Origin: a phage
DNA: 64,000 bases
Sequence record: PZ151149.1
Strand: one strand, 5' to 3'
Below are positions 25,348 through 45,794 of the stretch, in pieces (position 1 is the stretch's first letter; each line of letters starts with the position of its first letter). The notes beneath the pieces were generated by a model that saw only the letters and a list, made by a program, of their open reading frames with translations, was not told the origin of the DNA and did no database searches. The translations under genes were made by a program, and so were the position numbers.

Positions 25348-26335
25348 TGAAAATAGTGTGATCTATCGCTCAATCATTACTAGTAAATTCAGAACGGAAA
25401 AACTTCTGAATTTCTATAATTCTGTAGGCGATGGAGCAAATCAAATTACAATTTATGGAACGTTTGGACGTTCGGAGCCGTGGTCAGAAAACGAAAAAGA
25501 GGTGGGCTTTGCCCCACCTTATCCGACCGATTCAACGGCTGGCGTTGTTGATATGTGGACCCATATGATGGGTGCGGTTAAGATTAACAAATCACTTCTT
25601 GATGCGGTCATCCCCCGTAAAGATTGGGGTGATACCGGACAGGATAACCCGCGCACGTTCTTTATCAATGACATTGTTGTTGTAAACTCAGCACCATATA
25701 ACCGTACAGATGTTGGTAGCGGCTGGATGGTGTATCGCGTAACCGATGTTCCTGATCGCGGTTACTGCTCGATTTCAAGCATTGATGCTAAAGTAGAGTG
25801 TTTGAAGTTGGGCGGAAAGTGGACCCCAACTCATGAATCAATTGCGCCACCTGTAGGAAAGGGCGATTCTATTGATATGGGTGATGGGTATCGTTGGGAA
25901 TATCTGTACACAATTCCACCTGATGCGGCGATCAACCGTTGCACCAATGAACATATTGTTGTACCGTTCCCCGATGAACTGCGACAAGATCCGGCGCGTT
26001 GGGGCTATGACAATGTGATCACCTGGTATAATGACTATAATCTGCTTTATCGGCTGAAAGTAGTAACTTTGCGTTTTCAGGCTTATATGGACTCTGCGCA
26101 ATTCCCAACTACCGCGTTAGTGGGTAATACTGGTTTCCGTCAGTTAAGCATTATCCTTAACCCATTGGAAAAGAAAGCACGCCCTAGCGATCCAGACGTT
26201 AAAGCGGTTAACGATAAGTACCGACCGCAAGACTTAGAGCCACACTCAGGAGAAATGATCTACATGGAAAACCGACAACCTATCGTTCGTTCACTGGATC
26301 AAACAGAACTTGTTTCTGTATTATTTGAGTTCTAA
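25340..26335 (+). CDS. 8: baseplate wedge protein gp8
   Basis: Synteny, size 331 aa (T4 334). Confidence 0.85.
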   Translation: MANENSVIYRSIITSKFRTEKLLNFYNSVGDGANQITIYGTFGRSEPWSENEKEVGFAPPYPTDSTAGVVDMWTHMMGAVKINKSLLDAVIPRKDWGDTGQDNPRTFFINDIVVVNSAPYNRTDVGSGWMVYRVTDVPDRGYCSISSIDAKVECLKLGGKWTPTHESIAPPVGKGDSIDMGDGYRWEYLYTIPPDAAINRCTNEHIVVPFPDELRQDPARWGYDNVITWYNDYNLLYRLKVVTLRFQAYMDSAQFPTTALVGNTGFRQLSIILNPLEKKARPSDPDVKAVNDKYRPQDLEPHSGEMIYMENRQPIVRSLDQTELVSVLFEF

Positions 26336-26348
26336 GTATATGATTTTA

Positions 26349-26376
26349 AAGCCAATTCGTGAGAATTGGCTTTTTC
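26349..26376 (+). terminator. rho-independent terminator after gene 8
   Basis: Hairpin AGCCAATTC-GTGA-GAATTGGCT then TTTTTC. Confidence 0.65.
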
Positions 26377-26387
26377 TATTTTGGGTG

Positions 26388-26415
26388 TTGACAATCTTGT
26401 CTGGTGAGGTATAAT
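26388..26415 (+). promoter_or_regulatory. sigma70-like promoter (TTGACA-N16-TATAAT) for the methyltransferase cassette
   Basis: Consensus hexamers just downstream of the gene 8 terminator. Confidence 0.55.
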
Positions 26416-26444
26416 GCTCACATCTAAACAACGGAGGATAAATT

Positions 26445-26702
26445 ATGGCACGTCGTAAATTTACAGATAATTGTGAAGCAATTCAGGTATCCCCTTGCGG
26501 TTGGGATGTGATTGCGAACGGTGAAAAGATCGGAGAGATCATCGATCATACTCATTCATCATTAGCTGATTACACCGATGAACTGTGGGAAGGTATCAAC
26601 TTCATGAATGACACTAAGCGATTCAAGACTATTGACGAAGCTATCTATTTTGTATACAATCCAACTTTCGGTATGTGGAGTGATAGAAAATGGCACGCGT
26701 AA
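26445..26702 (+). CDS. hypothetical protein (85 aa), first gene of inserted cassette
   Basis: ORF downstream of sigma70-like promoter. Confidence 0.5.
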   Translation: MARRKFTDNCEAIQVSPCGWDVIANGEKIGEIIDHTHSSLADYTDELWEGINFMNDTKRFKTIDEAIYFVYNPTFGMWSDRKWHA

Positions 26703-27022
26703 ATATTAAATTGCATTACACAATGAATAAAGCTAAGTTCCCAATGCAAAAGCATTACTATGGTCTACGTGCACAAGATCCTAAACTCTATGGTACTCAT
26801 TGGTTTTGTAAACATGATAACCAATGGCACACATACGAAGAAATGCACGAGATGATGAAACAGGGTATTGAATTTAGTTATTCTAATTATGACCATCGTA
26901 TAACTTGCATTCGAAAATTGAAACGATGGATTCGTAAGAATCCGCAATTTAAAAACTATGTGTTCTTTATGTCTCATACTTATCTGGGGCATAGCGTTAC
27001 CGTAACAGCAAAGGTTAAATAA
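26690..27022 (+). CDS. hypothetical protein (110 aa)
   Basis: ORF, His/Cys-containing; overlaps neighbours. Confidence 0.5.
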   Translation: MARVNIKLHYTMNKAKFPMQKHYYGLRAQDPKLYGTHWFCKHDNQWHTYEEMHEMMKQGIEFSYSNYDHRITCIRKLKRWIRKNPQFKNYVFFMSHTYLGHSVTVTAKVK

Positions 27023-27861
27023 TGGCACGACTTTCTAAACAAGAACAAAAATTACACGACCGAGCAATGGAGTTGATTAATTCAGATCGTCCATTGACAT
27101 TTGAAGAAAAAGAATTTTGCTATAATAACTATCATGGCGATGGGCTAGGTGGTTCCGGTGCATTCTTTACCCCAGAATGGCTTGCCTGGGATTTTACCAT
27201 TGACGCACACTGCACAGGAAAAGTATTGGACCTTTGTGCTGGGATCGGTCGTTTATCTTTTTGTATGTTGCATCGTTGTAAGCCAGAAAAGATCGTATGC
27301 GTCGAACTCAATCCAGAATTTGCGCGGATTGGCAAGCGACTATTACCGGAGGCAGAATGGATCACCAGCGATGTATTCGAATTTGAGTCAAACGAGAAAT
27401 TCGATGTTGTAATTAGCAATCCACCTTTCGGGAAAATCAATACTACCAACACAAAGGATGTATTTGAATATACTGGCGGTGAGTTTGAATTTAAGGTTAT
27501 GACGTTAGGCCAGAAGTTTGCCGATGTAGGTTACTTTATTGTTCCTTCTAGTTCCGCTGGTTTTGCCTATTCCGGCAGACCTTATTATGATGAATCAGTG
27601 AAGTCTAATAAATATCTAAAATGGAGCAAACAAACTGGTTTGGTGACTTATGCCGGATGTGGGATCGATACATCAGTCTATCGCGATGAATGGCATAATA
27701 CCAACGTTTTAACAGAAGTGGTTGAGGTTCGGTATTACGAGAAAGAAGCCGTAGAAGCGCCTAAATCGCGTCCTAACGAACAAATAGAAGAAAGTAAGGA
27801 GATTACCTTACCGAAACAGGAAAGCGAGTCTGGGACGCTCTCAGATTTGTTTGACATTTAA
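27022..27861 (+). CDS. SAM-dependent methyltransferase, probable N6-adenine DNA methyltransferase (gamma-class motif order)
   Basis: Motif X-like FFTPEW, motif I VLDLCAGIGRLS, motif IV VISNPPFGK in that order. Confidence 0.65.
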   Translation: MARLSKQEQKLHDRAMELINSDRPLTFEEKEFCYNNYHGDGLGGSGAFFTPEWLAWDFTIDAHCTGKVLDLCAGIGRLSFCMLHRCKPEKIVCVELNPEFARIGKRLLPEAEWITSDVFEFESNEKFDVVISNPPFGKINTTNTKDVFEYTGGEFEFKVMTLGQKFADVGYFIVPSSSAGFAYSGRPYYDESVKSNKYLKWSKQTGLVTYAGCGIDTSVYRDEWHNTNVLTEVVEVRYYEKEAVEAPKSRPNEQIEESKEITLPKQESESGTLSDLFDI

Positions 27862-27865
27862 TTAT

Positions 27866-27893
27866 AAGCCGTCCTTGTGGGCGGCTTTTTTGT
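27866..27893 (+). terminator. rho-independent terminator after the methyltransferase gene
   Basis: Hairpin AGCCGTCC-TTGT-GGGCGGCT then TTTTTTGT. Confidence 0.65.
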
Positions 27894-27901
27894 ATGTATT
27901 T

Positions 27902-27909
27902 TATAAATA
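27902..27909 (+). promoter_or_regulatory. T4-type late promoter TATAAATA upstream of gene 9
   Basis: Exact TATAAATA 28 nt before ATG. Confidence 0.6.
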
Positions 27910-27936
27910 ATACATCATAACATGAGGAATTAAACA

Positions 27937-28791
27937 ATGGCACAAGTTCCAAAGAAAAGAATAGACACAGGTACGGTCGGCAATCCATCGACTGGCGATA
28001 TCTTATATGATGGCGGTAATAAAATTAACGATAACTTTGATTCAATATATGACGCATTTGCTGATCAACGGTTTAAAGACGTAGACCACGGCGTAGGAAG
28101 AATGGTTATTCATGCAACCGGATACTATCAGAAGCATCCACGTCAAAGCTACTCGGGTTCCGCTGTTGAGATTGGGAGTCTACACGATATCGATACAACT
28201 CAAGGCGCACTTATTGCTATTCTACCTAAAGCAAAGGTCGGAGAGGGTGTTGTATTCATAAATAGTAACGGTAGCCTTTCAACGACGACACCGCTCAATA
28301 TTCGAACTCAAGCAGGTGATTCTATTAGCGGTTATTCCGGTGATGCTACAATAACACAACCATTTTCAAAAGTCACTGTTTGGTGTACTGCCGTTGAAGG
28401 TAGTCGCGTAACATGGCGATTGGGTATCGAAAGTATGTTTACCGATACAACAACGCCAGTAGATAAAACTGTTAACGTAACTGGAGTAGCAACAAACGTT
28501 GCTATTGCCGCAAAAACAGAATATGTTTCCATCAAATTATTAACTACCGCTAGCAATACATCCGGTTCAAAAATGCGTTCAAGTGAAACGCTACTGATGA
28601 TTGATTCTAAAGCCGGAAAAGTTTATGCGACGGAATATGCAGTTTTGCAGAAGACAGAAGATGAACTATACACGGTTCGTTATTTCATCGGTTCCGGCGA
28701 TAAAGTATATGCAGAGTATAAGGCTACTGGCGAAAATATTCGTTTAGCAGTTAAAGCCGTAGACACTATTAAAATCGGGGTTGCTACATGA
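27937..28791 (+). CDS. 9: baseplate wedge tail fiber connector gp9
   Basis: Synteny, size 284 aa (T4 288); late promoter upstream. Confidence 0.85.
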   Translation: MAQVPKKRIDTGTVGNPSTGDILYDGGNKINDNFDSIYDAFADQRFKDVDHGVGRMVIHATGYYQKHPRQSYSGSAVEIGSLHDIDTTQGALIAILPKAKVGEGVVFINSNGSLSTTTPLNIRTQAGDSISGYSGDATITQPFSKVTVWCTAVEGSRVTWRLGIESMFTDTTTPVDKTVNVTGVATNVAIAAKTEYVSIKLLTTASNTSGSKMRSSETLLMIDSKAGKVYATEYAVLQKTEDELYTVRYFIGSGDKVYAEYKATGENIRLAVKAVDTIKIGVAT

Positions 28792-30590
28792 AACAATTAA
28801 TTAATATCGGTAACGTTGTTGATGACGGTACAGGTGATTATCTAAGAAAAGGCGGTCAAAAGATTAATGACAACTTTTCTGAACTTTATACTAAGCTGGG
28901 GGATGGTGATATCCCTCACGCATCCGGTGCATGGAAAACGCACACAGATCCATTATTAAAGCCTAATTTTGGTGATGCGTGGGCGATTAATACAACGAAC
29001 AACGCTGTTTCTGTTGAATTGCCTAAAGGAAGCGCGAGTGATTACAATAAAACAATTAAACTTCGTGATGTTTGGCGCTCATGGGCTGCACATAACGTAA
29101 CATTGAAGCCAGCACAAGGTGATACCATTAAGGGATCTCCAATCGACCGTGAGTTGTATAAAGATTTTATGGATGTTGAACTGGTTTATTGTGCGCCTGG
29201 ACGTTGGGAATATATCGAAAACAAGCGAGTTGACACGATCACCACGTCTGACCTAAGCACAGTTGCTAAGGAAGTTTATATTGCAACCGAAGGACAAACA
29301 GACTTCCCTAATGTATTTGGTTCTAACACATATAACATTCGAAATGTTGAAGTATATTATCGAGGAAACCTTTTATATTATGGCAAGTCTTTTAGTGATG
29401 ACTCTAACTACGGTTCAATTGGCGAGGATGGATCACTTGTTGAACTTGATGGCAAAAGTATAAAACTTCGTTTTCCTTGTTCGGCTGGGGATACCGTTCA
29501 AATCATCACATATATGGATGGAATTGCGTCTTTCCGTTCTAGTTATATCACACACACAATTAGAGTGTATGATACCGGAATGACAGCACTAGAAACTATT
29601 CCGGGTGAAGTGTGGGTAGGTGATTTATCGACGAAAAAAGAATTTACCAATGCTGATTTGGGAGTTAGTAAACGTGATATAATTAACCCAAATTCATTTG
29701 AGTTATTAATAAATGGTACTCAAATGATTAAAGCTGGTGATGCTGATCTTCCTTCGTTTGTTTGTGAAGGTGCTGACGGAGAAACCGAAGAGAGTTGCGC
29801 ACTTGCTGGCGGTCAGTGGGTACAGTCTGGAGAAGATTATTCACTGGTATTTGATGAGAATAGCATTGTAACAGGGATTAAATTAGCTAAAGCGTTGGAC
29901 AATAGAGATACTATAACAATTCGTTGGTTTAATAACGATATCGGAACTCTATTAGAATGGGATGGTGTCGGCGGAATTAAAGAAAAAGCAGACAAGATTT
30001 ATCTCAATAACGAAGACGAAGTTAATTTAACAAAACAAATTGAATATACCGACTTCCAGAATCCTAGCCAGAAAAACACTCGTCCGGCAGAAGAGTATTC
30101 AGGTCGAATTATGGATATATATGCACTGTTTGATATTTTCCATCCAATCGGCACGATATACGAAAACGCACATAACCCAGCTAACCCAGCGACATATATG
30201 GGTATTGGTATCTGGGTTCGGTATGCGGAAGGAGAATTTCTTGCTGGTTGGTCTTCCGATGCCAGCGACCAGAATTTTGCATTAAACAATAACGATCTTG
30301 ATATTCATGGACAACCTACACACACCGCTGGTGGTACTGGTGGTGAAGTTGCCTATCAAATCAAGAAAGATATGATTCCTGAATTACAATCCAGCGATCG
30401 TGTTTTGGTGAAAGACGATACAGGGTCAATTATCATTGGTGGCTGTCAAGTTGATCCTGATGCGGCAGGTCCAGCGTTTACGAAATATAGAGAGGATATC
30501 GTAAAAGTTAATTCTGGAAATGCTGATCCATCAATGATGGGTATTCTTCCTCCATATCGCACCGTTCATCGCTGGTTAAGGGTAGGTTAA
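28788..30590 (+). CDS. 10: baseplate wedge protein gp10
   Basis: Synteny, size 600 aa (T4 602). Confidence 0.85.
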   Translation: MKQLINIGNVVDDGTGDYLRKGGQKINDNFSELYTKLGDGDIPHASGAWKTHTDPLLKPNFGDAWAINTTNNAVSVELPKGSASDYNKTIKLRDVWRSWAAHNVTLKPAQGDTIKGSPIDRELYKDFMDVELVYCAPGRWEYIENKRVDTITTSDLSTVAKEVYIATEGQTDFPNVFGSNTYNIRNVEVYYRGNLLYYGKSFSDDSNYGSIGEDGSLVELDGKSIKLRFPCSAGDTVQIITYMDGIASFRSSYITHTIRVYDTGMTALETIPGEVWVGDLSTKKEFTNADLGVSKRDIINPNSFELLINGTQMIKAGDADLPSFVCEGADGETEESCALAGGQWVQSGEDYSLVFDENSIVTGIKLAKALDNRDTITIRWFNNDIGTLLEWDGVGGIKEKADKIYLNNEDEVNLTKQIEYTDFQNPSQKNTRPAEEYSGRIMDIYALFDIFHPIGTIYENAHNPANPATYMGIGIWVRYAEGEFLAGWSSDASDQNFALNNNDLDIHGQPTHTAGGTGGEVAYQIKKDMIPELQSSDRVLVKDDTGSIIIGGCQVDPDAAGPAFTKYREDIVKVNSGNADPSMMGILPPYRTVHRWLRVG

Positions 30591-30591
30591 T

Positions 30592-31236
30592 ATGATTTCT
30601 AAAACACGTTCTAAAGCAAGCGTATTTTCTAGCGACGCAGCATTCATTTCATACGATCCGGGGTCTAAAGACCCCGTTATTGGCGACATTCGCCCAATTG
30701 GTGGATTAAACGTAGACCAATCTCGCAAAGGTTCTTTTATTAACAACGTACAATCAGCCATTGATGATTTGTATAGCATTTCTATGCTTAATGTCGGTGA
30801 TGTATTGGTAACTACAAATTCAACTCCACCGGAAGCGGCGGGACAAATAGAAACTCTTTCTTTCACTGGAACGGTAACAAATAAACACGATCCAGCCGCG
30901 ACAAAAGTTGTAATTGAAGTTTTGGGTTATCCATTTGTTGTTAATGTTGGAACATCGAATGTTGCATTATGCGAAATGGTCACAACAAAATTTACTGAAT
31001 TGAAAGACAAAAGTATTCTGTTCTCTAAAGTTGAGAGGAAAGGTACTGGCAACGATCAAATAGAGATTCAGTATATTGATTCAAACGCACACGAAGCAAC
31101 GGTCGTAGAAAAATATGGTATTAGCGTTCGTGGGGAAATAAATTCCCCTGCTCGTTATGGTTATGGTGCATGGTCCAGATTGGGAACGGAAGAAAAATTT
31201 GATTCAACACTATTTTATTTTAAGCGTATTGCGTAA
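30592..31236 (+). CDS. 11: baseplate wedge protein gp11
   Basis: Synteny, size 214 aa. Confidence 0.85.
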   Translation: MISKTRSKASVFSSDAAFISYDPGSKDPVIGDIRPIGGLNVDQSRKGSFINNVQSAIDDLYSISMLNVGDVLVTTNSTPPEAAGQIETLSFTGTVTNKHDPAATKVVIEVLGYPFVVNVGTSNVALCEMVTTKFTELKDKSILFSKVERKGTGNDQIEIQYIDSNAHEATVVEKYGISVRGEINSPARYGYGAWSRLGTEEKFDSTLFYFKRIA

Positions 31237-31247
31237 GGTGTAAAATT

Positions 31248-32651
31248 ATGAATAACACTATTAATCACGTAAAAGACGATGCACAGTATGTTAAGTTTGA
31301 CCCTACCGGAAATTGGCCTAGCAATATAAAAAACGTACAAGCGGCATTAGCCGCTATTCAGGGATTTGCTATTGCAGGTCTTCCAACGGCAACCGAAGAA
31401 ACAGCGGGTATTGCTGAAATTGCTACTCAACAAGAAGTAGATGATGGGTTGGATGGAACTAAAATTGTTACCCCCAAAACATTGGCTGTTAAGCTGTCAA
31501 GACCGGACGCAACAAAACTTGCCAAAGGGATCACTCGCTATGCTAATAACGATGAAGCTATGGGCGATACTCCAAATATTGCAATTGGTCCTGATACATT
31601 AACCCATGTATTCGAGAATAAGAAAGCAACGGAAACCGTACAGGGTACAATTAAAATCTGTTCTATGGATGCTGCAAAAATTGGTAGTGATGACACTATG
31701 GCAGTAACGCCTAAAAAGATGCACGCTGCTATTGCTCAGATTGTTCCTGGGTTGATTCCAGAACAAAACACGGCGACCGAGTCCCGTGAGGGTTTAGTTA
31801 GACTGGCGACAAGCCAACAAACGCTTGCTGGTACTATCAGAGAAGGATTTGCCGTTAGTCCATATGCATTTTCCAACGCAAGAGCCAATGAAAATCAGGC
31901 GGGTACGGTTAAAATTGCCTCATCCCAACAAATGATTGACGGTAATGACAACACAGTAGTAGTATCAGCACAAAAATTTGCGAACACTAAAGCAACCACT
32001 GGACAATTCGGTGTTGTTAAGCTAACAGATAACCCAGGATCAGGCGAGGCAAACGCAGCACTGTCGGCAAATGCTCGTGTATTGCCTCTAAGTGGTGGTG
32101 TCGTTACTGGCGATGTGTATCGTCATAGTGGAGGCGACGGAAACCAGTTTATCATTAAAAATGAACTGGATGGTCTTTGTATGCCTATTGGTGGCATCAT
32201 TCTTACAGCATTTAACAGTTTCGACCACGCACAATTCAAAATCTGCAACGGTCAATGGTTAAATAAACACCAATATCCAGTATTATTTTCACGAATCGGT
32301 TTCACTTACGGCGGAGATGGCGGAGACAACTTTGCTCTACCAGATATGCGAGGGCTTGTTGCTAGAGGATGCGACCACGGTCGAGGACTAGACCCAGGTC
32401 GCGGATTTGGTACTTATCAAGACGACACCATGCAACATATGACAGGTAACTTCCCTGTAGCTAACCGTTGGCGCGGTTGGACTGGTGGTGTATTTGCCAT
32501 CACAGGCGGTCAATGGAGCACGAACTATAAAAACGGTGGTGGTGATGATTGGGGTAGTATTGTTAACTTTGACAGCGCAAGACAGGTTAGAACGTCTGGC
32601 GAAACTCGCGTTAAAAGCCTTGCATTAAACTACATGATAAGGGTACAATAA
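31248..32651 (+). CDS. 12: short tail fiber protein gp12
   Basis: Synteny; C-terminal collar/receptor-binding-like region with FALPDMRG motif. Confidence 0.85.
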   Translation: MNNTINHVKDDAQYVKFDPTGNWPSNIKNVQAALAAIQGFAIAGLPTATEETAGIAEIATQQEVDDGLDGTKIVTPKTLAVKLSRPDATKLAKGITRYANNDEAMGDTPNIAIGPDTLTHVFENKKATETVQGTIKICSMDAAKIGSDDTMAVTPKKMHAAIAQIVPGLIPEQNTATESREGLVRLATSQQTLAGTIREGFAVSPYAFSNARANENQAGTVKIASSQQMIDGNDNTVVVSAQKFANTKATTGQFGVVKLTDNPGSGEANAALSANARVLPLSGGVVTGDVYRHSGGDGNQFIIKNELDGLCMPIGGIILTAFNSFDHAQFKICNGQWLNKHQYPVLFSRIGFTYGGDGGDNFALPDMRGLVARGCDHGRGLDPGRGFGTYQDDTMQHMTGNFPVANRWRGWTGGVFAITGGQWSTNYKNGGGDDWGSIVNFDSARQVRTSGETRVKSLALNYMIRVQ

Positions 32652-34420
32652 TGATCGAACAGTTAAACATTCGAAAGATCCCTAACGTCGATGGTGTCCC
32701 TGGAGAGGGACAGCATTCTATTAGCTGGATTAAAAATGGTGAATGTCTAAGCGCAGCAACCACAGAAACAGGACACGAGGGGACGCTTAACCGCGCCCCT
32801 TATGCTATTCAAGAAAATATTGTTCGTCTGGATGAAAATTCTAAGACAACGGTAACAAAAGTTAACGAAGTTGTTACCGCAGTTAATGATATTAAAACTA
32901 CTTTAGGCGCGGTTTCTGATGGTAGTATTATTGATATTGTCAATCAAACTATTGCAAAGGTTGAGTCTGTAGAAGAAAATTTAGGAGAAACTTCAAGGAC
33001 ATTACAAACCACAGTAGATGAACTGGCGGAGACAGGAAAGAAAATTGGTGTTCGTCCGGCAGCAGATCCGAGTACACGAACAATATATGATGATATTTCT
33101 TTCATCAAACAAGAATTGGGCGCTTTCCCTAACTTCAATATCAACGGTTATCCAGATCCAGGTAGTTCCGGTTCCGGTATCAAATATCGAGTTATCCAGA
33201 ATACGGAAGCATTAAACAACCACGGTCAGCGAATCCTCCAACTAGAAAACGACTGGCAAGATTCTGACGTTGGAGAGCTAACAAAACAAGTTAACAAAAT
33301 GCGAAGCGAGCTAGGCGATACATCACTAGCAACACAGGACAATGTTTATCTTCGTCTTCGCACAAATACTCGCAATATCGCTAGTATATCAAACGAAGTT
33401 CAGGAAGTAAAGAAAGCGATTCTATTTGAATCAATTCCTGATATCGGGACTAAAGTAACTAAGCTACAATCTGATTATACACAGCTTAATGATGAAGTCA
33501 ACGGCGTTGACGCTGGTATCCGTCCTCGTTTAACTCTTCTGGAAAATACGATTGGCAGTCCTCAAGCCGCTGGAAGTATTGATTATCGATTGACTAATCA
33601 AGAACGGGAATTTGTAGATCTTAAATCTATTGTCGGTGTTAGTGGTGCTGATGGTCTACGTGGTGAGGTTGCACGAATCTCTAACACAGTTGGTACTGAT
33701 AGTGAGCGTCATACTATCGCAGGTCGTCTAAAAATTGTAGAAAACACACAGGGACGACTAGAAGCTAGCGTACAGGATATCGAGCAAATGATCGGCGATC
33801 GAGATTCCGGTCTAACCGCTGGGGTTATTAAGCTGTCAAGCGACATGTACGGCAATCCAGAAGGAAGCACGCAGCTTGAACAAGATGGGATCGTGAAAAC
33901 TGTTAAGGAATTGAGCACATCAAATGCAAGCAAGGTAACAGACGTTCCTGATGATGGTTTCCATTATCTACGTAAGCACGGGGAATGGGTTCAGGTCGCA
34001 TGGGCGGCTGGTGCATTTAAAAACACCGCTCAGATTGATATTACTCTCGACGGACAAGATCAATACAAAGGAATCCCGCTAAACGATATGACCGAAGAAG
34101 TTCCTGCGCGTGGAATGGTTAAGAGCGAATCTCTTGTTACGGTTAACGACAAAGGCTTATTCCGTTGTGATTTCCGTTGTTCTGTAAATGCGGCACATAA
34201 CGCTACTTTCGTAGTCGGTATTGCTAAAAATGGTCTGATTGTACATGAGGTACGAAATGGTCATTATGGACCTGATGATTTAATTAGCTATTCTACCAGT
34301 GCTTTCCTAAATATTGAAAAGGGCGACCGGATCGATATTCGCATTAAGGGCGTATCCGAAGAAGCATTAGCGCAACAGCTACAAATTAAAGAGTTCCTCT
34401 TTGGAATTTCTCCGGTATAA
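32651..34420 (+). CDS. wac: fibritin (whisker) Wac with foldon and extra C-terminal domain
   Basis: N-terminus VDGVPGEGQHSISWIKNGE matches T4 Wac; foldon-like YLRKHGEWVQV near residue 440; about 138 further residues follow. Confidence 0.85.
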   Translation: MIEQLNIRKIPNVDGVPGEGQHSISWIKNGECLSAATTETGHEGTLNRAPYAIQENIVRLDENSKTTVTKVNEVVTAVNDIKTTLGAVSDGSIIDIVNQTIAKVESVEENLGETSRTLQTTVDELAETGKKIGVRPAADPSTRTIYDDISFIKQELGAFPNFNINGYPDPGSSGSGIKYRVIQNTEALNNHGQRILQLENDWQDSDVGELTKQVNKMRSELGDTSLATQDNVYLRLRTNTRNIASISNEVQEVKKAILFESIPDIGTKVTKLQSDYTQLNDEVNGVDAGIRPRLTLLENTIGSPQAAGSIDYRLTNQEREFVDLKSIVGVSGADGLRGEVARISNTVGTDSERHTIAGRLKIVENTQGRLEASVQDIEQMIGDRDSGLTAGVIKLSSDMYGNPEGSTQLEQDGIVKTVKELSTSNASKVTDVPDDGFHYLRKHGEWVQVAWAAGAFKNTAQIDITLDGQDQYKGIPLNDMTEEVPARGMVKSESLVTVNDKGLFRCDFRCSVNAAHNATFVVGIAKNGLIVHEVRNGHYGPDDLISYSTSAFLNIEKGDRIDIRIKGVSEEALAQQLQIKEFLFGISPV

Positions 34421-34426
34421 GAAATT

Positions 34427-34450
34427 AAAGGGGCGTTAAGCCCCTTTTCC
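34427..34450 (+). terminator. rho-independent terminator after wac
   Basis: Hairpin AGGGGC-GTTA-AGCCCCT then TTTCC. Confidence 0.5.
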
Positions 34451-34466
34451 GTTTATAGGTGATATT

Positions 34467-35399
34467 ATGTCAGGATATGTAACCAATAACCCAAGAGAAT
34501 TAAAAGACGCTATTCTGCGTCGTTTAGGCGCACCAGTAATTAACGTAGAAGTCACAGAAGACCAGATTTACGATTGTATTCAGAGAGCACTAGAACTCTA
34601 TGGGGAATATCATTTCGATGGTGTGAATAAAGGATATAAAGTATTTCGTGTTAGTGCAGAGCAAGCTCAACACGGGGTATTCGATTTAAGCGATTCTGGT
34701 GTATTCGCAGTAACTAAAATAATTCGAACAAACGTAGGTAGCGCGGCTACGATGGATGGCACTGCCGTTTATCCGTGGTTTACTGACTTTCTGTTGGGTT
34801 TAGCGGGTGTAAATGGCGGTTTAGGATCTGGCTGTAGTAAATTTTATGGTCCAAATGCAATGGGCGGTGATCTGGGATATTTCGAACAGCTTATGAGCTA
34901 TCGCGCAACTATGCAAAATATGCTCAATCCGCTTCCAGATTATTGGTATAATAGCGCAAACGGACAACTTAAGATTACAGGAAACTTCCGAGAAGGTGAT
35001 CTCATTGTTGTTGAATTATATGTTAAAAGCTATATAGACGTTCCTGATATGATCGGTGCGGTTGCTGGTTATGCTCATGCGGGAGGATGTTCTACCGCTG
35101 GCGGGATTAGCGCCGTTTATGATAACCCAACTGCTGGTTTAAGCGGGATTGTTGCTGGCATGGGACCGATCCGTGATAACAAGCAGGGCGCATATAATAA
35201 CCGTTGGGTTAAAGACTGCGCGACCGCGTTTACTCGTGAGCTATGGGGGCAGATCTTAGCTAAACATCAAGGGTTGCAATTACCAGGTGGTGTAACAGTT
35301 GATGGTGTCAGAATCATCGAAGAAGCACGCGCCGACATTGAGAAATTGCGACAAGAACTACTTGACTTAGATCCACCATTTGGTATACTAATGATTTGA
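34467..35399 (+). CDS. 13: neck protein gp13
   Basis: Synteny, size 310 aa (T4 309). Confidence 0.85.
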
Positions 35400-35436
35400 T
35401 TTATTGGGGGGAGTATTCCCCCATTTGGAGTAACAT

Positions 35437-36177
35437 ATGTTTAACAACACTCTTTTTGCTCGCCTTGAATCGCAAAAGGATTATGAGAATACACGACAAA
35501 CCGAGATTCTTAATCCTTACGTGAACTTTCACAAATATACAAATACTCAGACGTTAGCCGACGTTATGGTCGCCGAAGCTATTCAGATGCGAGGTGTAGA
35601 ATTATATTACATCCCTCGTGAATTTGTCAAACCAGACATGATCTTTGGTGAGGATGTTCAGAGCAAATTTACTAAAGCATGGAAATTTGCGGCCTATATT
35701 AATTCATTTGATGGTTATGAAGGTGTTGGTAATTTCTTCTCTAGTTTCGGTTATCAAGCCAATGATGAACTAACTTTTACGGTTAACCCCAACCTATTCA
35801 AGCATCAAGTAGATGGAAACGAGCCGAAAGCGGGTGATTTGATTTATATTCCTATGAGTAATGATTTATTTGAAATCAATTACTTAGAGCCATATCAGCC
35901 GTTTTTTCAGGCTGGCAAAAATGCCATGCGTAAAATCATTGCAGAGAAATTCGTGTATAGCGGTGAGGAATTGCGACCAGAATTACAACGCAACGAGGGA
36001 ATCAACGTTGATGAGTTCGCGGATCTGGATCTTGCACCGATCACTAATCTGGACGGGTTAACAGATATCAACTTAGATCAGTACAAAGAAGATAAGCAAT
36101 TCAGAAGCGAAGGACAAGATTTTATTGACCCGTTTGATCCTATTAATGGCAAGGGTTCACCTTTCGCCGATTTTTGA
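35437..36177 (+). CDS. 14: neck protein gp14
   Basis: Synteny, size 246 aa. Confidence 0.85.
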
Positions 36178-36203
36178 TAAATACTCATAAACAAGGGGGT
36201 CAA

Positions 36204-37037
36204 ATGTTCGGTTGGCACTATAATTCGTCAATTAGAAGGTATATTGTATTGCTGGGTAATTTATTCTCCGGCGTACAAATTAAAAGGGTGCGTAGTGACG
36301 GTGAGCGTTATATTAAAGTTCCAATTACCTACGCAAAGAAAGAAAAATTCATGATGAGTCTGGACAAATATAACAATATCTCCAGTGAGGAAGACGTAGC
36401 AAAGGTAGAAACTATTTTACCGCGCATGTGTCTTTCTTTGATTGATATGACATACGCCCAGAACTTTAAAACAAATATTGCAAATAAGACAGTACCAAAA
36501 TATACGGCTGATGGAATCAGGAGTGTGACACAATATAATCCTGTACCATATAAGTTTACTTTCGAGTTAGGGATTTATACGCGTAACGAAGATGATATGT
36601 TTCAGATAATTGAACAGATTCTTCCTTACTTCCAGCCTCATTTTAACTGTAAGATTAAAGAACTACACGGTAATGATGTATGGATTGATCGAGATATTCA
36701 GGTCACAATTAGTTCTATTACTCCAGATGAACAGGTAGGCGAAGATAAGTTTTCTCGTCGTCGTCTTGAGTGGACCATTATGTTTGAGTTCATCGGGTTT
36801 ATCTATCCTCCAGCTACCGACGTTAAGGGGGAAATTAGAACGATTTATCTTGATTTTCATGCCAATTCTCGTGAATTGAATCCTAGCGGTAATTTTGAAT
36901 CTGTGGATCACGAGGTCGTTAAACGTGACGTCGAGCAAGAAGAATGGGACGGAACTATCAAAGAATCATATTCTAGTGATATTCCAATACCAGTTGCACC
37001 GACTCCACCAGGTCCACGTATTGTAAGAGAATTTTAA
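36204..37037 (+). CDS. 15: tail sheath stabilizer gp15
   Basis: Start MFGWHYNSSIRRY matches T4 gp15 MFGYFYNSSFRRY; RBS AAGGGGG. Confidence 0.9.
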   Translation: MFGWHYNSSIRRYIVLLGNLFSGVQIKRVRSDGERYIKVPITYAKKEKFMMSLDKYNNISSEEDVAKVETILPRMCLSLIDMTYAQNFKTNIANKTVPKYTADGIRSVTQYNPVPYKFTFELGIYTRNEDDMFQIIEQILPYFQPHFNCKIKELHGNDVWIDRDIQVTISSITPDEQVGEDKFSRRRLEWTIMFEFIGFIYPPATDVKGEIRTIYLDFHANSRELNPSGNFESVDHEVVKRDVEQEEWDGTIKESYSSDIPIPVAPTPPGPRIVREF

Positions 37038-37050
37038 GAGGTAATTTATT

Positions 37051-39371
<2,321 letters not shown>

Positions 39372-39402
39372 CGATAATGCATAAAAAGATGAGGAAATTC
39401 TA

Positions 39403-41406
39403 ATGACTCTATTATCACCGGGTTTCGAAACGAAAGAAACTACTCTCTCCACTACCATTGTGCAATCTGCGACTGGTCGCGCGGCGCTGGTAGGTAAATT
39501 TCAATGGGGTCCAGCTTTCCAGATTGTTCAAGTAACTAATGAAGTTGAATTAGTTAATAAATTTGGTCAGCCGGATAATAACACCGCAGACTATTTCATG
39601 AGCGGGGCTAACTTCCTCCAGTATGGCAATGACCTGCGTGTTGTTCGTGTACTCAATAAAGAAAAAGCAAAAAACGCAACTGCCCTAGCTGGTAACGTCG
39701 AGTTTGAAATCACAAACGAAGGTTCAAACTATGAAGTAGGCGATACCATCAAGATTAAACATAACCGTCAAGATATTGAAACGGCAGGTAAAGTAACTAA
39801 AGTTGATGGTGATGGTAAAGTTAAGGGAGTATTTATCCCAACTGGTAAAATTATCGCTCACGCTAAAGCAATTGGTGTTTATCCAGAACTTGATGGCGGT
39901 TGGACGGCAGAGTTCACTTCTTCGTCAGGTAACGGTAGTGCGGCGCTGTCAGTAACTAAAATTGTTACTGATTCCGGTCTTCTGTTAACGGATCTGGAAA
40001 CTTCCCGAGCCAATATCACAAATCAAACTTTCTTGACTAAACTCCAGAAGTATGATATGCCAGCGGTAAGCGCGATCTATGCTGGTGAGATTGGCAACTC
40101 GCTGGAAGTTGAAATTCTGGCACGTAGCTCGTTCAGTGGCGCGGTAGCACCTGAATTAACTATGTATCCGTTCGGCGGAACTCGTGCCGCAGCACGCAAC
40201 CTAATTCCATATGCACCGCAGAATGATAATCAATATGCGTTTATTGTTCGTCGAGATGGTGTTGTGGTAGAATCCTATGTACTGTCTACTCTGAAAGGGG
40301 ATAAAGACGTATACGGCAATTCTATCTACATGGACGACTTCTTTGCTCGTGGTTCTAGCCAGTACATCTATGCAACCGCTCAGGGCTGGGTCGATGGTTT
40401 CAGTGGCGTTATCTCTCTTGCTGGTGGCGTTTCTGCTAACGAAGCAACGACTGGTGGAGTTGGTGCTGATCCGTTCATCGGTGCGATGATGCAAGGTTGG
40501 GATCTGTTTGCTGAACGTGAATCTATTCACGTAAACCTGTTGATCGCTGGTGCATGTGCTGGCGAAGGCGATGCGTTCTCTACCGTACAGAAACATGCTG
40601 TTTCCATCGGTGATGAGCGTCAGGATTGCTTAGTAATGGTTTCTCCGCCGCGTAGCACTGTTGTTAATATTCCGGTGACTACTGCAATTGATAACCTGAT
40701 TGCATGGCGCGAAGGTTCAGGAAACTATAATGAAAACAACATGAACATTAATACCACTTACGCGGTTATTGATGGTAACTACAAATATCAGTATGACAAA
40801 TACAACGACGTAAACCGTTGGGTTCCGTTGGCTGCTGATATTGCTGGTTTGTGCGCTCGTACTGATGCTGTATCCCAGCCGTGGATGAGTCCGGCAGGTT
40901 ATAACCGTGGTCAGATCATGAACGTGGTTAAACTGGCAATTGAGCCTCGCAAGGCGCACCGCGATCGTCTGTATCAGGCCGCAATTAACCCGGTGATCGG
41001 TGCTGGTGGTGAAGGGTTTATCCTGATGGGTGATAAAACAGCTACGACTGTTCCTAGCCCGTTTGACCGCATTAACGTTCGTCGTCTATTTAACATGCTG
41101 AAAAAGAATATCGGCGATTCAAGCAAATACAAACTGTTTGAAAACAACGATAACTTTACTCGCGCTTCCTTCCGTATGGAGGTTTCGCAATATCTCAGCA
41201 CGATTCGCTCTCTGGGTGGCATTTATGACTTCCGAGTACAATGCGACACCACGAACAACACGCCGGATGTAATTGATCGTAATGAATTTGTTGCTAGTAT
41301 GTTCATCAAACCAGCAAAATCGATCAACTATATCATGCTCAATTTCACTGCTGTTGCAACTGGTGCTGATTTTGACGAAATTATCGGTCCAGCTAACCAG
41401 GCATAA
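39403..41406 (+). CDS. 18: tail sheath protein gp18
   Basis: Synteny, size 667 aa, late promoter upstream. Confidence 0.9.
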   Translation: MTLLSPGFETKETTLSTTIVQSATGRAALVGKFQWGPAFQIVQVTNEVELVNKFGQPDNNTADYFMSGANFLQYGNDLRVVRVLNKEKAKNATALAGNVEFEITNEGSNYEVGDTIKIKHNRQDIETAGKVTKVDGDGKVKGVFIPTGKIIAHAKAIGVYPELDGGWTAEFTSSSGNGSAALSVTKIVTDSGLLLTDLETSRANITNQTFLTKLQKYDMPAVSAIYAGEIGNSLEVEILARSSFSGAVAPELTMYPFGGTRAAARNLIPYAPQNDNQYAFIVRRDGVVVESYVLSTLKGDKDVYGNSIYMDDFFARGSSQYIYATAQGWVDGFSGVISLAGGVSANEATTGGVGADPFIGAMMQGWDLFAERESIHVNLLIAGACAGEGDAFSTVQKHAVSIGDERQDCLVMVSPPRSTVVNIPVTTAIDNLIAWREGSGNYNENNMNINTTYAVIDGNYKYQYDKYNDVNRWVPLAADIAGLCARTDAVSQPWMSPAGYNRGQIMNVVKLAIEPRKAHRDRLYQAAINPVIGAGGEGFILMGDKTATTVPSPFDRINVRRLFNMLKKNIGDSSKYKLFENNDNFTRASFRMEVSQYLSTIRSLGGIYDFRVQCDTTNNTPDVIDRNEFVASMFIKPAKSINYIMLNFTAVATGADFDEIIGPANQA

Positions 41407-41479
41407 TCAGTAAATTAGCATAGATTAAAAGTTAAATCAAGCGGGGATTTTCTCCCCGCTCTATTAAGGAATATCAATT

Positions 41480-41974
41480 ATGGCACTCGATTTGAATGAT
41501 ATTACACGCGGTTTCGAGTCTGGCGATTTTGCTCGTCCTAACCTGTTTGAAGTTGAGATCCCGTATCTGGGGCAAAACTTTAAGCTGATGTGTAAGGCTG
41601 CGACTGTCCCGGCTGCAACCGTAGAAAAAATTGCTGTAGGCTATCAAAACCGTAAAATTAACATCGCTGGCGACCGTGTATACGACGACTGGACCATCAC
41701 TGTATTCAACGATGACGCACACAAGATCCGTGATGCTATCGTTGCATGGAGCGATCAGACACACGGCACTGGTTCGGCGATCACTGGTGCAACTCCTGCA
41801 CAATATAAGAAACAAGCTATTGTTCGTCAACTTAACCGTAACACCGAATCAACTAGCGAAAAAACATTGTACGGTATTTTCCCGACCAACGTTGGTGAAG
41901 TAACCCTCGATTGGGAACAAAACAACGAAGTTGAAACGTTTGAAGTTACTTTTGCTATCGATTGGGTAGAATAA
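41480..41974 (+). CDS. 19: tail tube protein gp19
   Basis: Strong match to T4 gp19 (TRGFESGDFARPNLF, KINIAGDR). Confidence 0.95.
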   Translation: MALDLNDITRGFESGDFARPNLFEVEIPYLGQNFKLMCKAATVPAATVEKIAVGYQNRKINIAGDRVYDDWTITVFNDDAHKIRDAIVAWSDQTHGTGSAITGATPAQYKKQAIVRQLNRNTESTSEKTLYGIFPTNVGEVTLDWEQNNEVETFEVTFAIDWVE

Positions 41975-42032
41975 ATATATTATCATGCGGGGAGAAGTTC
42001 CCCGCTTAATTTCTCCCAATTCGAGGTGAATA

Positions 42033-43598
42033 ATGTTTAGTAGATTAAAAATGCTTGCGCGTTGGGCTGATTTTGACAACGACAAATACGAAGAACAAAT
42101 TAAAGATAAAGCAGAGTCTATCGCCGCACCTAAAAACAATGATGGTGCTACGGAAGTAGAAATTAATGATAATTTACCTGCTAGCTCGTGGAACTCTCTT
42201 ACCCAGCAATTTTACAGCACCGACCAGAAAATCAGCACAACTAAGCAATTAGTTAACACATATCGCGGTTTGATGAATAACCATGAAGTCGAAAACGCTG
42301 TACAAAATATAGTTAACGATGCGATTGTATTTGAAGAAGGTCATGAAGTTGTTTCATTAAATCTTGAGGCGACTGGCTTTAGTGAATCTGTAAAAGAGCG
42401 CATTCATGAAGAATTTAAAGATCTTTTAAACACTATCCAGTTTGATAAGCGTGGTCAGGATATGTTCCGTCGCTGGTATGTCGATTCTCGTATTTTCTTC
42501 CATAAAATCATCGGCAAAAATCCAAAAGATGGTATCATAGAATTACGCCAGCTTGACCCACGTAATCTTGAATACGTTCGAGAGATCATTACAGAAGACA
42601 CACCGGAAGGTAAAATTTATAAAGCAACGAAAGAATATTTCATTTACACTGTAGGCAATAGCTCTTATTGCGCAGGTGGTCAAGTATTCTCTCCTAATAG
42701 TCGCGTTAAAATCCCGCGTAGTGCTATTACATACGCTCACAGCGGCTTGATGGATTGTGATGATAAATATATCATTGGTTATTTGCATCGGGCTGTTAAG
42801 CCAGCAAACCAGCTTAAATTGTTGGAAGACGCAATGGTCGTTTATCGTATCACGCGTGCACCGGAACGCCGAGTGTTCTTTATTGATACCGGAAACATGA
42901 ACAACCGCAAGGCTGCACAGCACATGAACTCAGTGGCACAGTCTTTTAAAAACCGCGTTGTTTATGATGCATCGACTGGTAAACTTAAAAACCAGCAAGC
43001 AAATCTATCAATGACAGAGGACTACTGGTTACAGCGTCGAGATGGTAAAGCAATCACCGACGTTACTACTTTACCGGGTGCATCCGGTATGAGTGATATC
43101 GATGATATTCGCTACTTTAACCGTAAATTGTATGAAGCGTTGCGTGTGCCATTGTCACGCAGCAATCTCTCCGATGCTAATATGGTGATCGGTGGTGACG
43201 GTTCAGAAATTACTCGCGATGAGTTGGAATTTTCGAAATTCATTAGAACTCTGCAATCACAGTTTTCGGAAGTATTGCGCGATCCGCTTAAATACAATCT
43301 GATTCTCAAAAATGTAATTACGGAAGACGATTGGGATCGTGAAATAAATAATATCAAGGTGGTTTTCCATCGGGACTCTTACTATACAGAAGTTAAAGAC
43401 GCGGAAATTTTAGAGCGTCGAATCGGTCTAATCGAACGTATTACACCTTACATTGGTAAATATTTCTCTAACCAGACAGTGATGCGTGACATTCTGAAAT
43501 ATACCGATGACCAGATGGACACCGAGAAGAAACAGATCGAAGAAGAAGCGAACGATCCGCGCTTTAAACAAACTCCCGATGAAATAGAGGATTTTTAA
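42033..43598 (+). CDS. 20: portal vertex protein gp20
   Basis: Strong match to T4 gp20 (HFRRWYVDSRIFFHKII, YLHRAVKPANQLKLLED). Confidence 0.95.
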   Translation: MFSRLKMLARWADFDNDKYEEQIKDKAESIAAPKNNDGATEVEINDNLPASSWNSLTQQFYSTDQKISTTKQLVNTYRGLMNNHEVENAVQNIVNDAIVFEEGHEVVSLNLEATGFSESVKERIHEEFKDLLNTIQFDKRGQDMFRRWYVDSRIFFHKIIGKNPKDGIIELRQLDPRNLEYVREIITEDTPEGKIYKATKEYFIYTVGNSSYCAGGQVFSPNSRVKIPRSAITYAHSGLMDCDDKYIIGYLHRAVKPANQLKLLEDAMVVYRITRAPERRVFFIDTGNMNNRKAAQHMNSVAQSFKNRVVYDASTGKLKNQQANLSMTEDYWLQRRDGKAITDVTTLPGASGMSDIDDIRYFNRKLYEALRVPLSRSNLSDANMVIGGDGSEITRDELEFSKFIRTLQSQFSEVLRDPLKYNLILKNVITEDDWDREINNIKVVFHRDSYYTEVKDAEILERRIGLIERITPYIGKYFSNQTVMRDILKYTDDQMDTEKKQIEEEANDPRFKQTPDEIEDF

Positions 43599-43841
43599 AT
43601 GAAACAATTTATCGAAGCAATTAAAACTCGCGATCTAACGCTGATCGAAAAAGAATTTGATAAGATCATGGAGGCTAAAAAAGCCCAGATCATCGAATCC
43701 CAGCGTGTCGAAATCGCATCCAGTATCATGATCGAAGGTGAAGAAGAAAAAGACCGCGATGATGAAGAAGATATGGAAGATGAGGACGACGAAGACGAAG
43801 ATCGCAAAGACGATAAAAAAGACAAAGAAGACGACGAATGA
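43599..43841 (+). CDS. 67: prohead core protein gp67
   Basis: 80 aa as in T4 gp67; acidic C-terminal tail; synteny. Confidence 0.8.
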   Translation: MKQFIEAIKTRDLTLIEKEFDKIMEAKKAQIIESQRVEIASSIMIEGEEEKDRDDEEDMEDEDDEDEDRKDDKKDKEDDE

Positions 43842-43853
43842 TAGGAAGCCAAC

Positions 43854-44261
43854 ATGATTAAAGATTTTACTCCTAAAGCTGACTTAGAAACTTTTCTGCC
43901 GGAAGCACAGGAAAAATTAGACATGTTGGCTATGTTTGAGTCAGAAGAACTATTGAAAATCGTTGAAGGTATCTCCGAGGATGAGCCGGAACTGGCGGTA
44001 GCAATGCTGTCTATCATCGACGGAATTACTGTAAATGAAGCAATGGTTAAACATGTAAACGCACGCGGGGAAGTTGCACGTAAGAAAGATCGCAAAACCC
44101 GTGAGCGTAATGCTTACATGACTACTGGCCTAAGCAAAGCTAAACGCCGTCAAATTGCCCGTCGTGCTGCAAAAACCAAACGTGCAAATCCATCTATCGA
44201 ACGTCATGCGGAACGTAAGCGCAAAAAAGCAATGCGTAAACGTAAGGCGTTAGGATTATAA
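43854..44261 (+). CDS. 68: prohead core protein gp68
   Basis: Synteny, size 135 aa, basic C-terminus. Confidence 0.8.
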   Translation: MIKDFTPKADLETFLPEAQEKLDMLAMFESEELLKIVEGISEDEPELAVAMLSIIDGITVNEAMVKHVNARGEVARKKDRKTRERNAYMTTGLSKAKRRQIARRAAKTKRANPSIERHAERKRKKAMRKRKALGL

Positions 44262-44272
44262 CAGGAAACAAC

Positions 44273-44968
44273 ATGGAAAAGAACGAATTACTGATCGAAC
44301 AATGGGGCGTTCCTTGTGCTCGCGGTAGTTCGTCATTGCTTGAATCATTTGATGATAAGGCTACAGGAAATCTCTATATTCAAGGGATTTTCCTGCAAGC
44401 CGAAACGGTAAACCGCAATAAACGCTGGTATCCTCGCAGTGTTCTAGAAAATGCGGTTACTAAATACATACATGAACAAGTTGAGACACATCAAGCTCTA
44501 GGCGAACTTAATCACCCAGCAAGAGCAATGCCAGATCCATCTAATGCTTGCATCATAATTGAAAAATTATGGTGGGAAGGTAATAACGTGATGGGTAAAG
44601 CCCGTGTTATTGAAGGGGATAAAGGCGCAGGTGATAAACTTGCTGCACTGATTCGCGCTGGCTGGATTCCTGGCGTTTCCTCCCGTGGGTTGGGTCGGTT
44701 GAAAGACTCTGGTCGCGGATACAATATTGTACAGGAAGGTTTTGTGTTGACGGTTGGTGTTGATGTTGTTTGGGGTCCGAGCGCACCAGATGCGTGGGTA
44801 ACTCCGGTGGTTGAGTCAACGGATAGCGATTCTAGCGCGTCAGACGCACCAGAAAGCGATAAAACCGAAAAAGTGACTAACCCTACAGCCTCACAACAAA
44901 ACATCGTAGAATCGAATAATAGCGCGTTTATGGCGCTCGCAGAAGCGTTATCTAAACGCTATAAATAA
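44273..44968 (+). CDS. 21: prohead core protein and protease gp21
   Basis: Strong match to T4 gp21 (ALGELNHP, AGWIPGVSSRGLG, WGPSAPDAWVTP). Confidence 0.95.
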   Translation: MEKNELLIEQWGVPCARGSSSLLESFDDKATGNLYIQGIFLQAETVNRNKRWYPRSVLENAVTKYIHEQVETHQALGELNHPARAMPDPSNACIIIEKLWWEGNNVMGKARVIEGDKGAGDKLAALIRAGWIPGVSSRGLGRLKDSGRGYNIVQEGFVLTVGVDVVWGPSAPDAWVTPVVESTDSDSSASDAPESDKTEKVTNPTASQQNIVESNNSAFMALAEALSKRYK

Positions 44969-44999
44969 TAACGTCGTTATCAACAAGAAGGTTATAACC

Positions 45000-45794
45000 A
45001 TGCTTAAAGAAATGCTGCTCGAAGAAGCAAAACAGATCACCGTAGACGTTGCTCTCGATGACCTGTTTGAATCCGTCGAACTGTCGCCGGAAGTAAAAGA
45101 AAATTTTGGTGCTATCTACGCTCAGGCGGTAAAAGCTAATGCTGTTGCACTGGCAGAAAGCCACATTGAAAAAATCGCCGCTAAAGCCGATGAACTGGTA
45201 GAATCAAAGGTCGAAGAAGCACGCACCGAGATTGAAACCAAACTGTACGAAGATGCAGATAAATTCCTGAATCACTTAGGCGCTAAATGGCTGGCAGAAA
45301 ATAAAGAAGCCGTCACCCGTAATATTAAAGCGGATCTGTGCGAATCCCTGATTGGTTCTCTGAAAGATGTTTTCGTTACTCACAATGTTGTAGTACCGGA
45401 AGAATCTGTAGACGTTGTTGCTGAACTTGACGAAGCACTCAAAGAAGAAAAAGAAAAAACCTCTGAACTCTTTGATGCCAAACTGCAACTTGAAAGCGAA
45501 ATTCGTGGCATGAAGCGCGAACAAGCGATCAATGAAAGCACTCGTGATCTTTCCGATACTCAGAAAGAAAAAGTAACCGCGCTGATTGAAGGTCTGGAAT
45601 ATAGCGAAACTTTCGATAAGAAATTAACTGCAATTGTCGAAATGGTTGCTAAGAAAGAAGACAAACCAGCGAAGATTGAAGAATCACTAAATACTGATGC
45701 TGACAAGCTGAATGTTATTGCAGAAGCTGTCGAAAAATCAGATAAAAAGGCAACTGTAGATTCCGGCGTATCCCGCTACCTGAATTTCATCTAA
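45000..45794 (+). CDS. 22: prohead core scaffold protein gp22
   Basis: Synteny, size 264 aa, acidic coiled-coil composition. Confidence 0.85.
   Translation: MLKEMLLEEAKQITVDVALDDLFESVELSPEVKENFGAIYAQAVKANAVALAESHIEKIAAKADELVESKVEEARTEIETKLYEDADKFLNHLGAKWLAENKEAVTRNIKADLCESLIGSLKDVFVTHNVVVPEESVDVVAELDEALKEEKEKTSELFDAKLQLESEIRGMKREQAINESTRDLSDTQKEKVTALIEGLEYSETFDKKLTAIVEMVAKKEDKPAKIEESLNTDADKLNVIAEAVEKSDKKATVDSGVSRYLNFI

Follow-up and report, generated by a model that had tools for sequence, protein, structure and literature searches.

A predicted C1q/TNF-like knob follows the retained foldon in the RB49-type fibritin of a JSE-like Krischvirus phage

Results

The wac gene and its neighbours

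The stretch of phage DNA analysed here (sequence record PZ151149.1, 64,000 nucleotides) is called the window. Since it is 97% identical in DNA sequence to phage JSE over positions 26000-46000, the phage is a JSE-like Krischvirus. The wac gene, which encodes the neck whisker protein fibritin, is located on the plus strand at 32651..34420 and specifies 589 amino acids. It was identified from the open reading frame (ORF) list, by tblastn, and by matches to phrog_1056 and T4 fibritin (2bsg). The phrog_1056 profile, 'fibritin neck whisker', matches residues 1-581 with an E-value of 1e-180. In tblastn against GenBank phages, the full-length protein showed 99.2% identity to that of phage phiS and 98.6% to that of JSE, and it matched RB49 and Phi1, where the gene is annotated as wac or fibritin neck whisker, at 78%; 100% of its length was covered in all 40 among the matches listed. 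According to the ORF list, no other ORF of at least 50 amino acids overlaps 33944-34417 on either strand.

wac lies between the gp12 short tail fibre gene (31248..32651, plus strand; Pfam Collar, E-value 3.8e-16) and the gp13 neck protein gene (34467..35399, plus strand; ORF list and JSE annotation), which is the gene position of T4-type fibritins. One base is shared between the wac start codon and the gp12 stop codon. Counterparts of gp13, gp14 and gp15 are located downstream of wac, as judged from the JSE annotation. A GC-rich terminator-like hairpin, AAAGGGGCGTTAAGCCCCTTT (34427..34447; formally assigned to the minus strand in the scan), begins 7 nt 3' of the wac stop codon, and phage G2248 has an annotated terminator at the corresponding site.

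In phmmer searches of PDB sequences, residues 7-431 were collinear with residues 6-436 of T4 fibritin 2bsg (E-value 2.3e-52). The first 50 residues (32651..32800, plus strand) correspond to the collar/neck-binding domain, whose role is known from the literature (PMC3797505); residues 7-84 align to the T4 fibritin N-terminal fragments 1ox3 and 2ibl with an E-value of about 2e-14. They are followed by a fibrous shaft (residues 51-424; 32801..33922, plus strand), which aligns collinearly to 2bsg and 3j2o. Judging from these alignments, the protein possesses the conserved neck-binding domain of about 50 residues and the long shaft homologous to the segmented coiled coil that are both expected of a T4-type fibritin.

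The foldon is retained inside the protein

A foldon-like β-hairpin (residues 425-450, NASKVTDVPDDGFHYLRKHGEWVQVA; 33923..34000, plus strand) follows the shaft at the end of the Pfam Fibritin_C match. The earlier note, made from the sequence alone, had described the motif YLRKHGEWVQV as an internal foldon-like segment, and the motif indeed occupies residues 439-449 (nucleotides 33965-33997). Fibritin_C covers residues 368-450, corresponding to profile positions 2-91 of 93, with an E-value of 1.5e-24 and a score of 86 bits (cut-off 21). A second phmmer segment aligned residues 425-449 to residues 456-480 of T4 fibritin, that is, to the foldon. When the 30-residue segment was compared with the T4 foldon by pairwise BLASTP, 11 of 26 positions were identical (E-value 6e-8). 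The equivalents of T4 P463, Y469, R471 and W476 were invariant in all 11 diverse RB49-type fibritins aligned, and dN/dS in the segment was 0.05 among Krischvirus wac genes. On account of these matches, the invariant residues and the low dN/dS, the foldon is homologous to that of T4, constrained and internal, as the earlier note had supposed.

The foldon is followed by 140 residues after V449, or 139 if counted from W451, so the previous estimate of about 138 was right. T4 fibritin ends 4 residues after the foldon hairpin. Thus, the N-terminal domain, shaft and foldon hairpin are homologous to and collinear with those of T4 fibritin (2bsg, 1aa0, 1avy), whereas the part after the foldon is 139-140 residues long here and 4 residues long in T4. 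As in T4-type fibritins, the hairpin lies at the C-terminal end of the shaft, though in an internal and not a terminal position. These comparisons show that the foldon was retained and the new domain appended after it, rather than the foldon being replaced.

The C-terminal domain is predicted to be a jelly roll

The additional domain was defined as residues 451-589 (34001..34417, plus strand; 139 residues) and, as the predicted distal end of the whisker, is hereafter called the knob. No significant match among PDB sequences was obtained by phmmer with the domain or by two profile searches. Pfam BclA_C matched the knob at 17.4 bits against a cut-off of 38 (E-value 0.004). When family members were scanned separately, the sub-threshold matches were consistent: BclA_C matches were seen in four of five and then in five of 11 (best E-value 1.7e-4), and sub-threshold C1q matches in three of 11 (best E-value 0.0097). 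Neither Pfam C1q (PF00386) nor BclA_C (PF18573) reached its gathering threshold with the knob. Because sequence searches of the PDB gave nothing significant, the fold assignment is based on the predicted structure together with the sub-threshold Pfam matches.

A single-sequence AlphaFold2 model of the knob was discarded (pLDDT 46.7). The model built from a five-sequence alignment had a pLDDT of 74.3 and a pTM of 0.71, and was all-β with about ten strands; it is a prediction of the monomer, and confidence is low for its first 40 residues. Beyond the foldon, the protein is thus predicted to be folded and not disordered, in line with the earlier note. The predicted structure is a compact jelly roll superposable on C1q/TNF heads. 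Its nearest structural neighbours were the cyanophage A4 tail fibre (score 11.0), the cell-wall-binding domain (CBD) of the A-1(L) short tail fibre (10.6), EDA-A1 and the Caprin-2 C1q domain (10.1 each), F-BclA, BclA and ExsFA (9.7-10.0), and Cerebellin-1 (9.7). About 25 TNF ligands, complement C1q, collagen VIII NC1 and adiponectin followed at 8.1-9.6, and the lactococcal phage 1358 receptor-binding protein and the TM4 gp23 receptor-binding domain at 8.4 and 8.2, respectively. PRD1 P5 is also among the phage receptor-binding knobs of similar fold. Foldseek concurs, with Cbln1 as the best match (4.7e-5) and 4-1BBL and C1QL next. The best matches among predicted viral structures were phage "C1q domain containing" proteins, tail fibre proteins, and collagen-like proteins of giant viruses with C1q heads. 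The compact jelly-roll tail proposed from the sequence is therefore borne out by the monomer prediction, in which the nearest folds are C1q/TNF-like trimeric heads and phage receptor-binding knobs. The suggested likeness to C1q/TNF is upheld by the structural neighbours and Foldseek, but not by the sequence families, which stay below threshold. The knob is very probably a C1q/TNF-like jelly roll, as far as a predicted structure can tell.

The knob occurs in a few related phage groups

By tblastn, the knob was found in 58 phage records, all Krischvirus and including RB49, Phi1 and JSE, with 74-100% identity over 139 amino acids. It is 100% identical in JSE and phiS and 76% identical in RB49, so that by sequence the protein carries the expanded C-terminal domain of RB49-type fibritins. 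A word-indexed homologue search with the domain and its alignment as queries returned two 110-residue fragments only (P0001 and P0002). Both start at the internal Met481 and were rejected as a separate gene, being gene-calling artefacts across a run of N; they come from an RB49-like scaffold (TONG22-1 scaffold_107; locus L002, 2409-4333). In an exhaustive HMMER scan of 1.84 billion representatives, only P0003 and P0004 were real relatives. P0004, a 591-residue fibritin of an uncultured phage with 29% identity (E-value 1e-6), was the sole addition; a repeat protein (P0005) was regarded as spurious.

The fibritin of Serratia phage 92A1 is 591 residues long and matches the domain with a pairwise E-value of 3e-12. 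tblastn starting from it detected Serratia phages WSPA, 4S, PS2, Muldoon and SP1 and Cronobacter phage VP8, and also recovered the same 58 Krischvirus records. The groups found to bear the knob are therefore Krischvirus, Muldoonvirus, the Serratia phage 92A1 group and one uncultured lineage. Wherever it was examined, the knob makes up the C-terminus of fibritin, immediately after a foldon-like hairpin and an AAG linker. By sequence, the knob is a module specific to fibritin; by its predicted fold, it belongs to a common type of phage fibre-tip module.

Selection and recombination

Thirteen Krischvirus wac genes were compared. Mean dN/dS was 0.05 in the N-terminus, 0.09 in the shaft, 0.05 in the foldon and about 0.17 in the knob, and these ratios are rough because dS is near saturation in the N-terminus, shaft and foldon. 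The knob is under purifying selection and is somewhat freer than the rest of fibritin. Its variable sites cluster in the first ~45 residues, and the C-terminal two thirds, which carry most of the strands, are its most conserved part.

gp12 and wac form one divergent cassette with two alleles, a JSE type and an RB49 type, which share 73-78% amino acid identity (window 31248-34420; loci L004-L014). Compared with RB49, gp12 is 73% identical and gp13 96%, and gp13 is 95.5-99.7% identical across Krischvirus. The divergent gp12-wac cassette beside the conserved gp13 indicates a recombination boundary at the end of wac. In phages ECD7 and Makalu002, wac shows 99-100% DNA identity to RB49 until about residue 465, and is 99-100% identical to the window from about residue 476-490 to the end. 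This switch of identity indicates recent intragenic recombination inside the knob domain. The switch zone corresponds to about 34043-34120 of the window, or residues 465-490 (loci L005 and L009). The recombination qualifies the published view that exchange of the fibritin C-terminal module has ceased (PMC3797505).

The C-terminal region of the long tail fibre protein gp37 shows 52-100% identity within Krischvirus and matches Tequatrovirus at ~52%, and this match of the gp37 tip indicates exchange of the receptor-binding region across genera. The C-terminal 300 residues of JSE gp37 (locus L003, 31116-32015) range from 100% identity down to 52% (phiS, G37-3), and RB32 is one of the Tequatrovirus phages that match at the ~52% level. 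The knob is far less variable than the gp37 tip (74-100% versus 52-100%). The high allelic diversity and horizontal exchange typical of host-range determinants were not seen in the knob, which shows 74-100% identity, occurs in few related groups and has a dN/dS of 0.17.

Relation between the knob and gp36

Novel C-termini of gpwac reportedly accompany novel C-termini of gp36, according to the abstract of Letarov et al. (2005). T4 gp36 has 221 residues; JSE gp36 has 496 (locus L003, 27548-29035), and Pfam Phage_T4_gp36 matches only residues 57-153 of it. The gp36 proteins of the knob-bearing Serratia phages are related to JSE gp36 over most of this extra length, with 97% coverage and 31% identity in 92A1 and 80% coverage in Muldoon. 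The co-occurrence of the knob with a long gp36 fits the idea of covariation at the clade level, but is suggestive only. Within Krischvirus, knob identity and gp36 identity were uncorrelated (Spearman -0.12, p 0.39, n=52), and co-evolution of knob and gp36 alleles was accordingly rejected there. In phiS, for example, the knob is 100% and gp36 89.5% identical, and in RB49 the values are 76% and 95%. Strict co-occurrence across clades was also rejected. Pseudomonas phage PspYZU05 has a T4-type fibritin of 463 residues that ends shortly after the foldon (locus L021, 25018-26409), and its gp36-like protein is long and covers 95% of the C-terminal region of JSE gp36; thus, a long gp36 and a whisker knob are not strictly coupled. 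In view of this phage and of the missing correlation, the co-occurrence at the clade level may reflect shared ancestry only, being confounded by common descent.

Many Klebsiella and Enterobacter phages have tail fibre proteins that share, with 60-75% identity, a short motif of JSE gp36 (at about residues 70-113 of the C-terminal 336-residue query), and so does the L-shaped tail fibre pb1 of T5.

Discussion

The RB49-type fibritin with its expanded C-terminal domain was reportedly described by Letarov et al. in 2005. Eight types of fibritin, among them the RB49 type, are distinguished by their C-terminal modules (Letarov & Krisch 2013, PMC3797505). The fibritin of the window differs in nothing substantive from those of RB49, Phi1 and JSE, with which it shares the family, the architecture and the gene position between gp12 and gp13. 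Since the RB49 type is published and the domain is 100% identical to that of JSE, the C-terminal extension is already known; the architecture has been in the literature for two decades and is no new kind of system. The RB49-type C-terminus was called 'alien' or 'unrelated to T4 Wac' in earlier papers (including PMC3797505), and no published assignment of a C1q/TNF fold to a fibritin was found in our literature searches. What this study adds is the fold assignment, the retention of the foldon, the wider distribution (Muldoonvirus, the 92A1 group and an uncultured lineage) and the ongoing recombination within the module. The RB43- and JS98-type fibritins follow the same principle, in that the N-terminus and shaft are conserved and the C-terminal end is modular; however, RB43 fibritin has Ig-like domains and JS98 fibritin two foldons with a spacer, and neither has been described with a C1q-like knob (PMC3797505).

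The predicted relatives of the knob by fold differ from it in their setting. C1q, TNF and BclA heads are associated with a collagen triple-helix stalk, whereas the knob is carried by an α-helical coiled coil and a foldon, and its sequence similarity to the C1q and BclA_C families is below every threshold (17 bits versus 38). The short tail fibre gp33 CBD of A-1(L) (8ke9) and the A4 tail fibre (9k09) have a knob-like fold with 9% sequence identity. They are receptor-binding fibres attached to the baseplate, whereas the knob is on a neck whisker and its host binding is putative.

The analysis shows what the gene is, that its foldon is homologous to that of T4, how the knob is predicted to fold, where it occurs and how it is selected. 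The protein is the RB49-type fibritin of a JSE-like Krischvirus, in which a T4-like collar-binding domain, a T4-like segmented coiled-coil shaft and a retained foldon are followed by an appended 139-residue knob with a predicted C1q/TNF-like jelly-roll fold. We propose that three knob domains pack into a trimeric head at the far end of each of the six whiskers. gC1q heads are commonly credited with nucleating and registering collagen stalks. The knob may likewise act as a C-terminal nucleus for trimerisation and registration, from which the coiled coil would fold. For the trimeric state and the folding requirement of RB49-type fibritin we rely on the literature: only T4 and JS98 fibritins form trimers on small foldon motifs alone, the T4 foldon being sufficient for trimerisation and the RB49 foldon not, and RB49 fibritin cannot fold on the foldon-like motif alone but requires the expanded C-terminus (PMC3797505). 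In addition, the knob may substitute for the bare foldon at the whisker tip and offer the surface for contact with the long tail fibre near the knee. Such a contact would aid fibre attachment and hold the fibres retracted, the canonical role of T4 fibritin; the long tail fibre is suggested as docking partner by the T4 paradigm and by the position of the knob. We give an even chance to this explanation as a whole, in which a trimeric C1q/TNF-like knob would be both a folding nucleus and a fibre-docking head.

The missing correlation between knob and gp36 alleles and the plain fibritin of PspYZU05 weigh against this explanation, as do the limits of a monomer model built from five sequences. The nearest structural neighbours of the knob also weigh against it, because they include proven host-binding knobs such as the A-1(L) gp33 CBD (PMC10966104) as well as proteins whose PDB titles name them lectins or receptor-binding proteins. 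The knob might instead be an auxiliary adhesin or lectin that reversibly binds a conserved glycan of the host surface, either LPS core or O-antigen, so that the flexible whiskers would hold the virion close to the cell until the tail fibres engage. Letarov and Krisch proposed the same idea for the Ig-bearing fibritin of RB43 (PMC3797505). Besides the neighbours of similar fold, among them the stem-CBD of A-1(L) gp33 (PMC10966104), it is favoured by the linkage of wac to gp12 and by LPS-predictive k-mers reported in the fibritin gene. However, hitch-hiking with gp12 would give rise to both the k-mer signal and the cassette linkage, and ECD7 and Makalu002 have a JSE-type knob although their gp12 and shaft are of the RB49 type, which indicates that the linkage of gp12 to the knob is breakable. 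Unlike gp37, the knob has no hypervariable loops and is not exchanged with other genera, and the literature gives it a folding role (PMC3797505). In view of the purifying selection, the few related groups, the lower variability than in gp37 and the published folding role, the 'added adhesin or environmental sensor' of the earlier note is unsupported. We consider it rather unlikely that the putative trimeric knob is a glycan-binding auxiliary adhesin.

The opposite simplification is that the knob has no specific ligand and is only a cap for folding and stability, an obligate trimer that clamps the C-terminal end of the coiled coil because the foldon of the RB49-type lineage has become insufficient. 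This agrees with the need of RB49 fibritin for its expanded C-terminus (PMC3797505), with the solved trimers of C1q/TNF-type heads such as the Cbln1 C1q domain (5kc5) and collagen VIII NC1 (1o91), and with the conservation of the strand-rich C-terminal two thirds of the knob. On the other hand, the strong constraint on the foldon (dN/dS 0.05, invariant P/Y/R/W) would be odd if it were redundant, and 30 residues suffice for folding in T4 and JS98. The whisker tip is the site at which T4 fibritin contacts the tail fibre (PMC3797505), and a head of 3 x 139 residues there is unlikely to be inert. A mere cap therefore seems quite improbable to us. That the extension is an artefact of read-through, frameshift or a fused downstream gene is hardly conceivable. 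The two 110-residue 'proteins' in the metagenome database that start at Met481 might be taken to suggest it, but both stem from the run of N in the scaffold. Moreover, the 589-residue ORF is intact and of equal length in 13 translated Krischvirus genes, and the domain and the full-length protein recur as described above (58 records, and 100% of the length in all 40 among the matches listed).

The foldon is widely used as a trimerisation tag, and the whiskers are the classic phage "environment sensor". An added C1q/TNF-like head offers a structural hypothesis for the need of the RB49 protein for an expanded C-terminus, and marks a surface where tail-fibre docking or host binding could reside. 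As a compact module conserved in its clade, the knob could also serve engineering. It is an unlikely idea that RB49-like phages have at the whisker tip a C1q/TNF-like lectin for a conserved sugar of the E. coli outer surface. If so, the six neck whiskers would form a third set of host-binding fibres, close to the capsid, and would be more than a chaperone and latch for the tail fibres. Such a lectin might contribute to the way in which RB49-like phages deal with hosts protected by O-antigen, a problem addressed in PMC9569957.

Other features of the window

Further downstream, at 35437-37037, gp15 directly follows gp14 and their ends overlap. In JSE, a homing endonuclease gene is located between gp14 and gp15 (locus L001, 9567-10322), and other Krischvirus phages have seg-like endonuclease genes between gp13 and gp14 instead. 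The GC skew of the window has two sign changes, one near 16-18 kb and one near 48-50 kb, which presumably mark the points where transcription switches direction between blocks of early and late genes.
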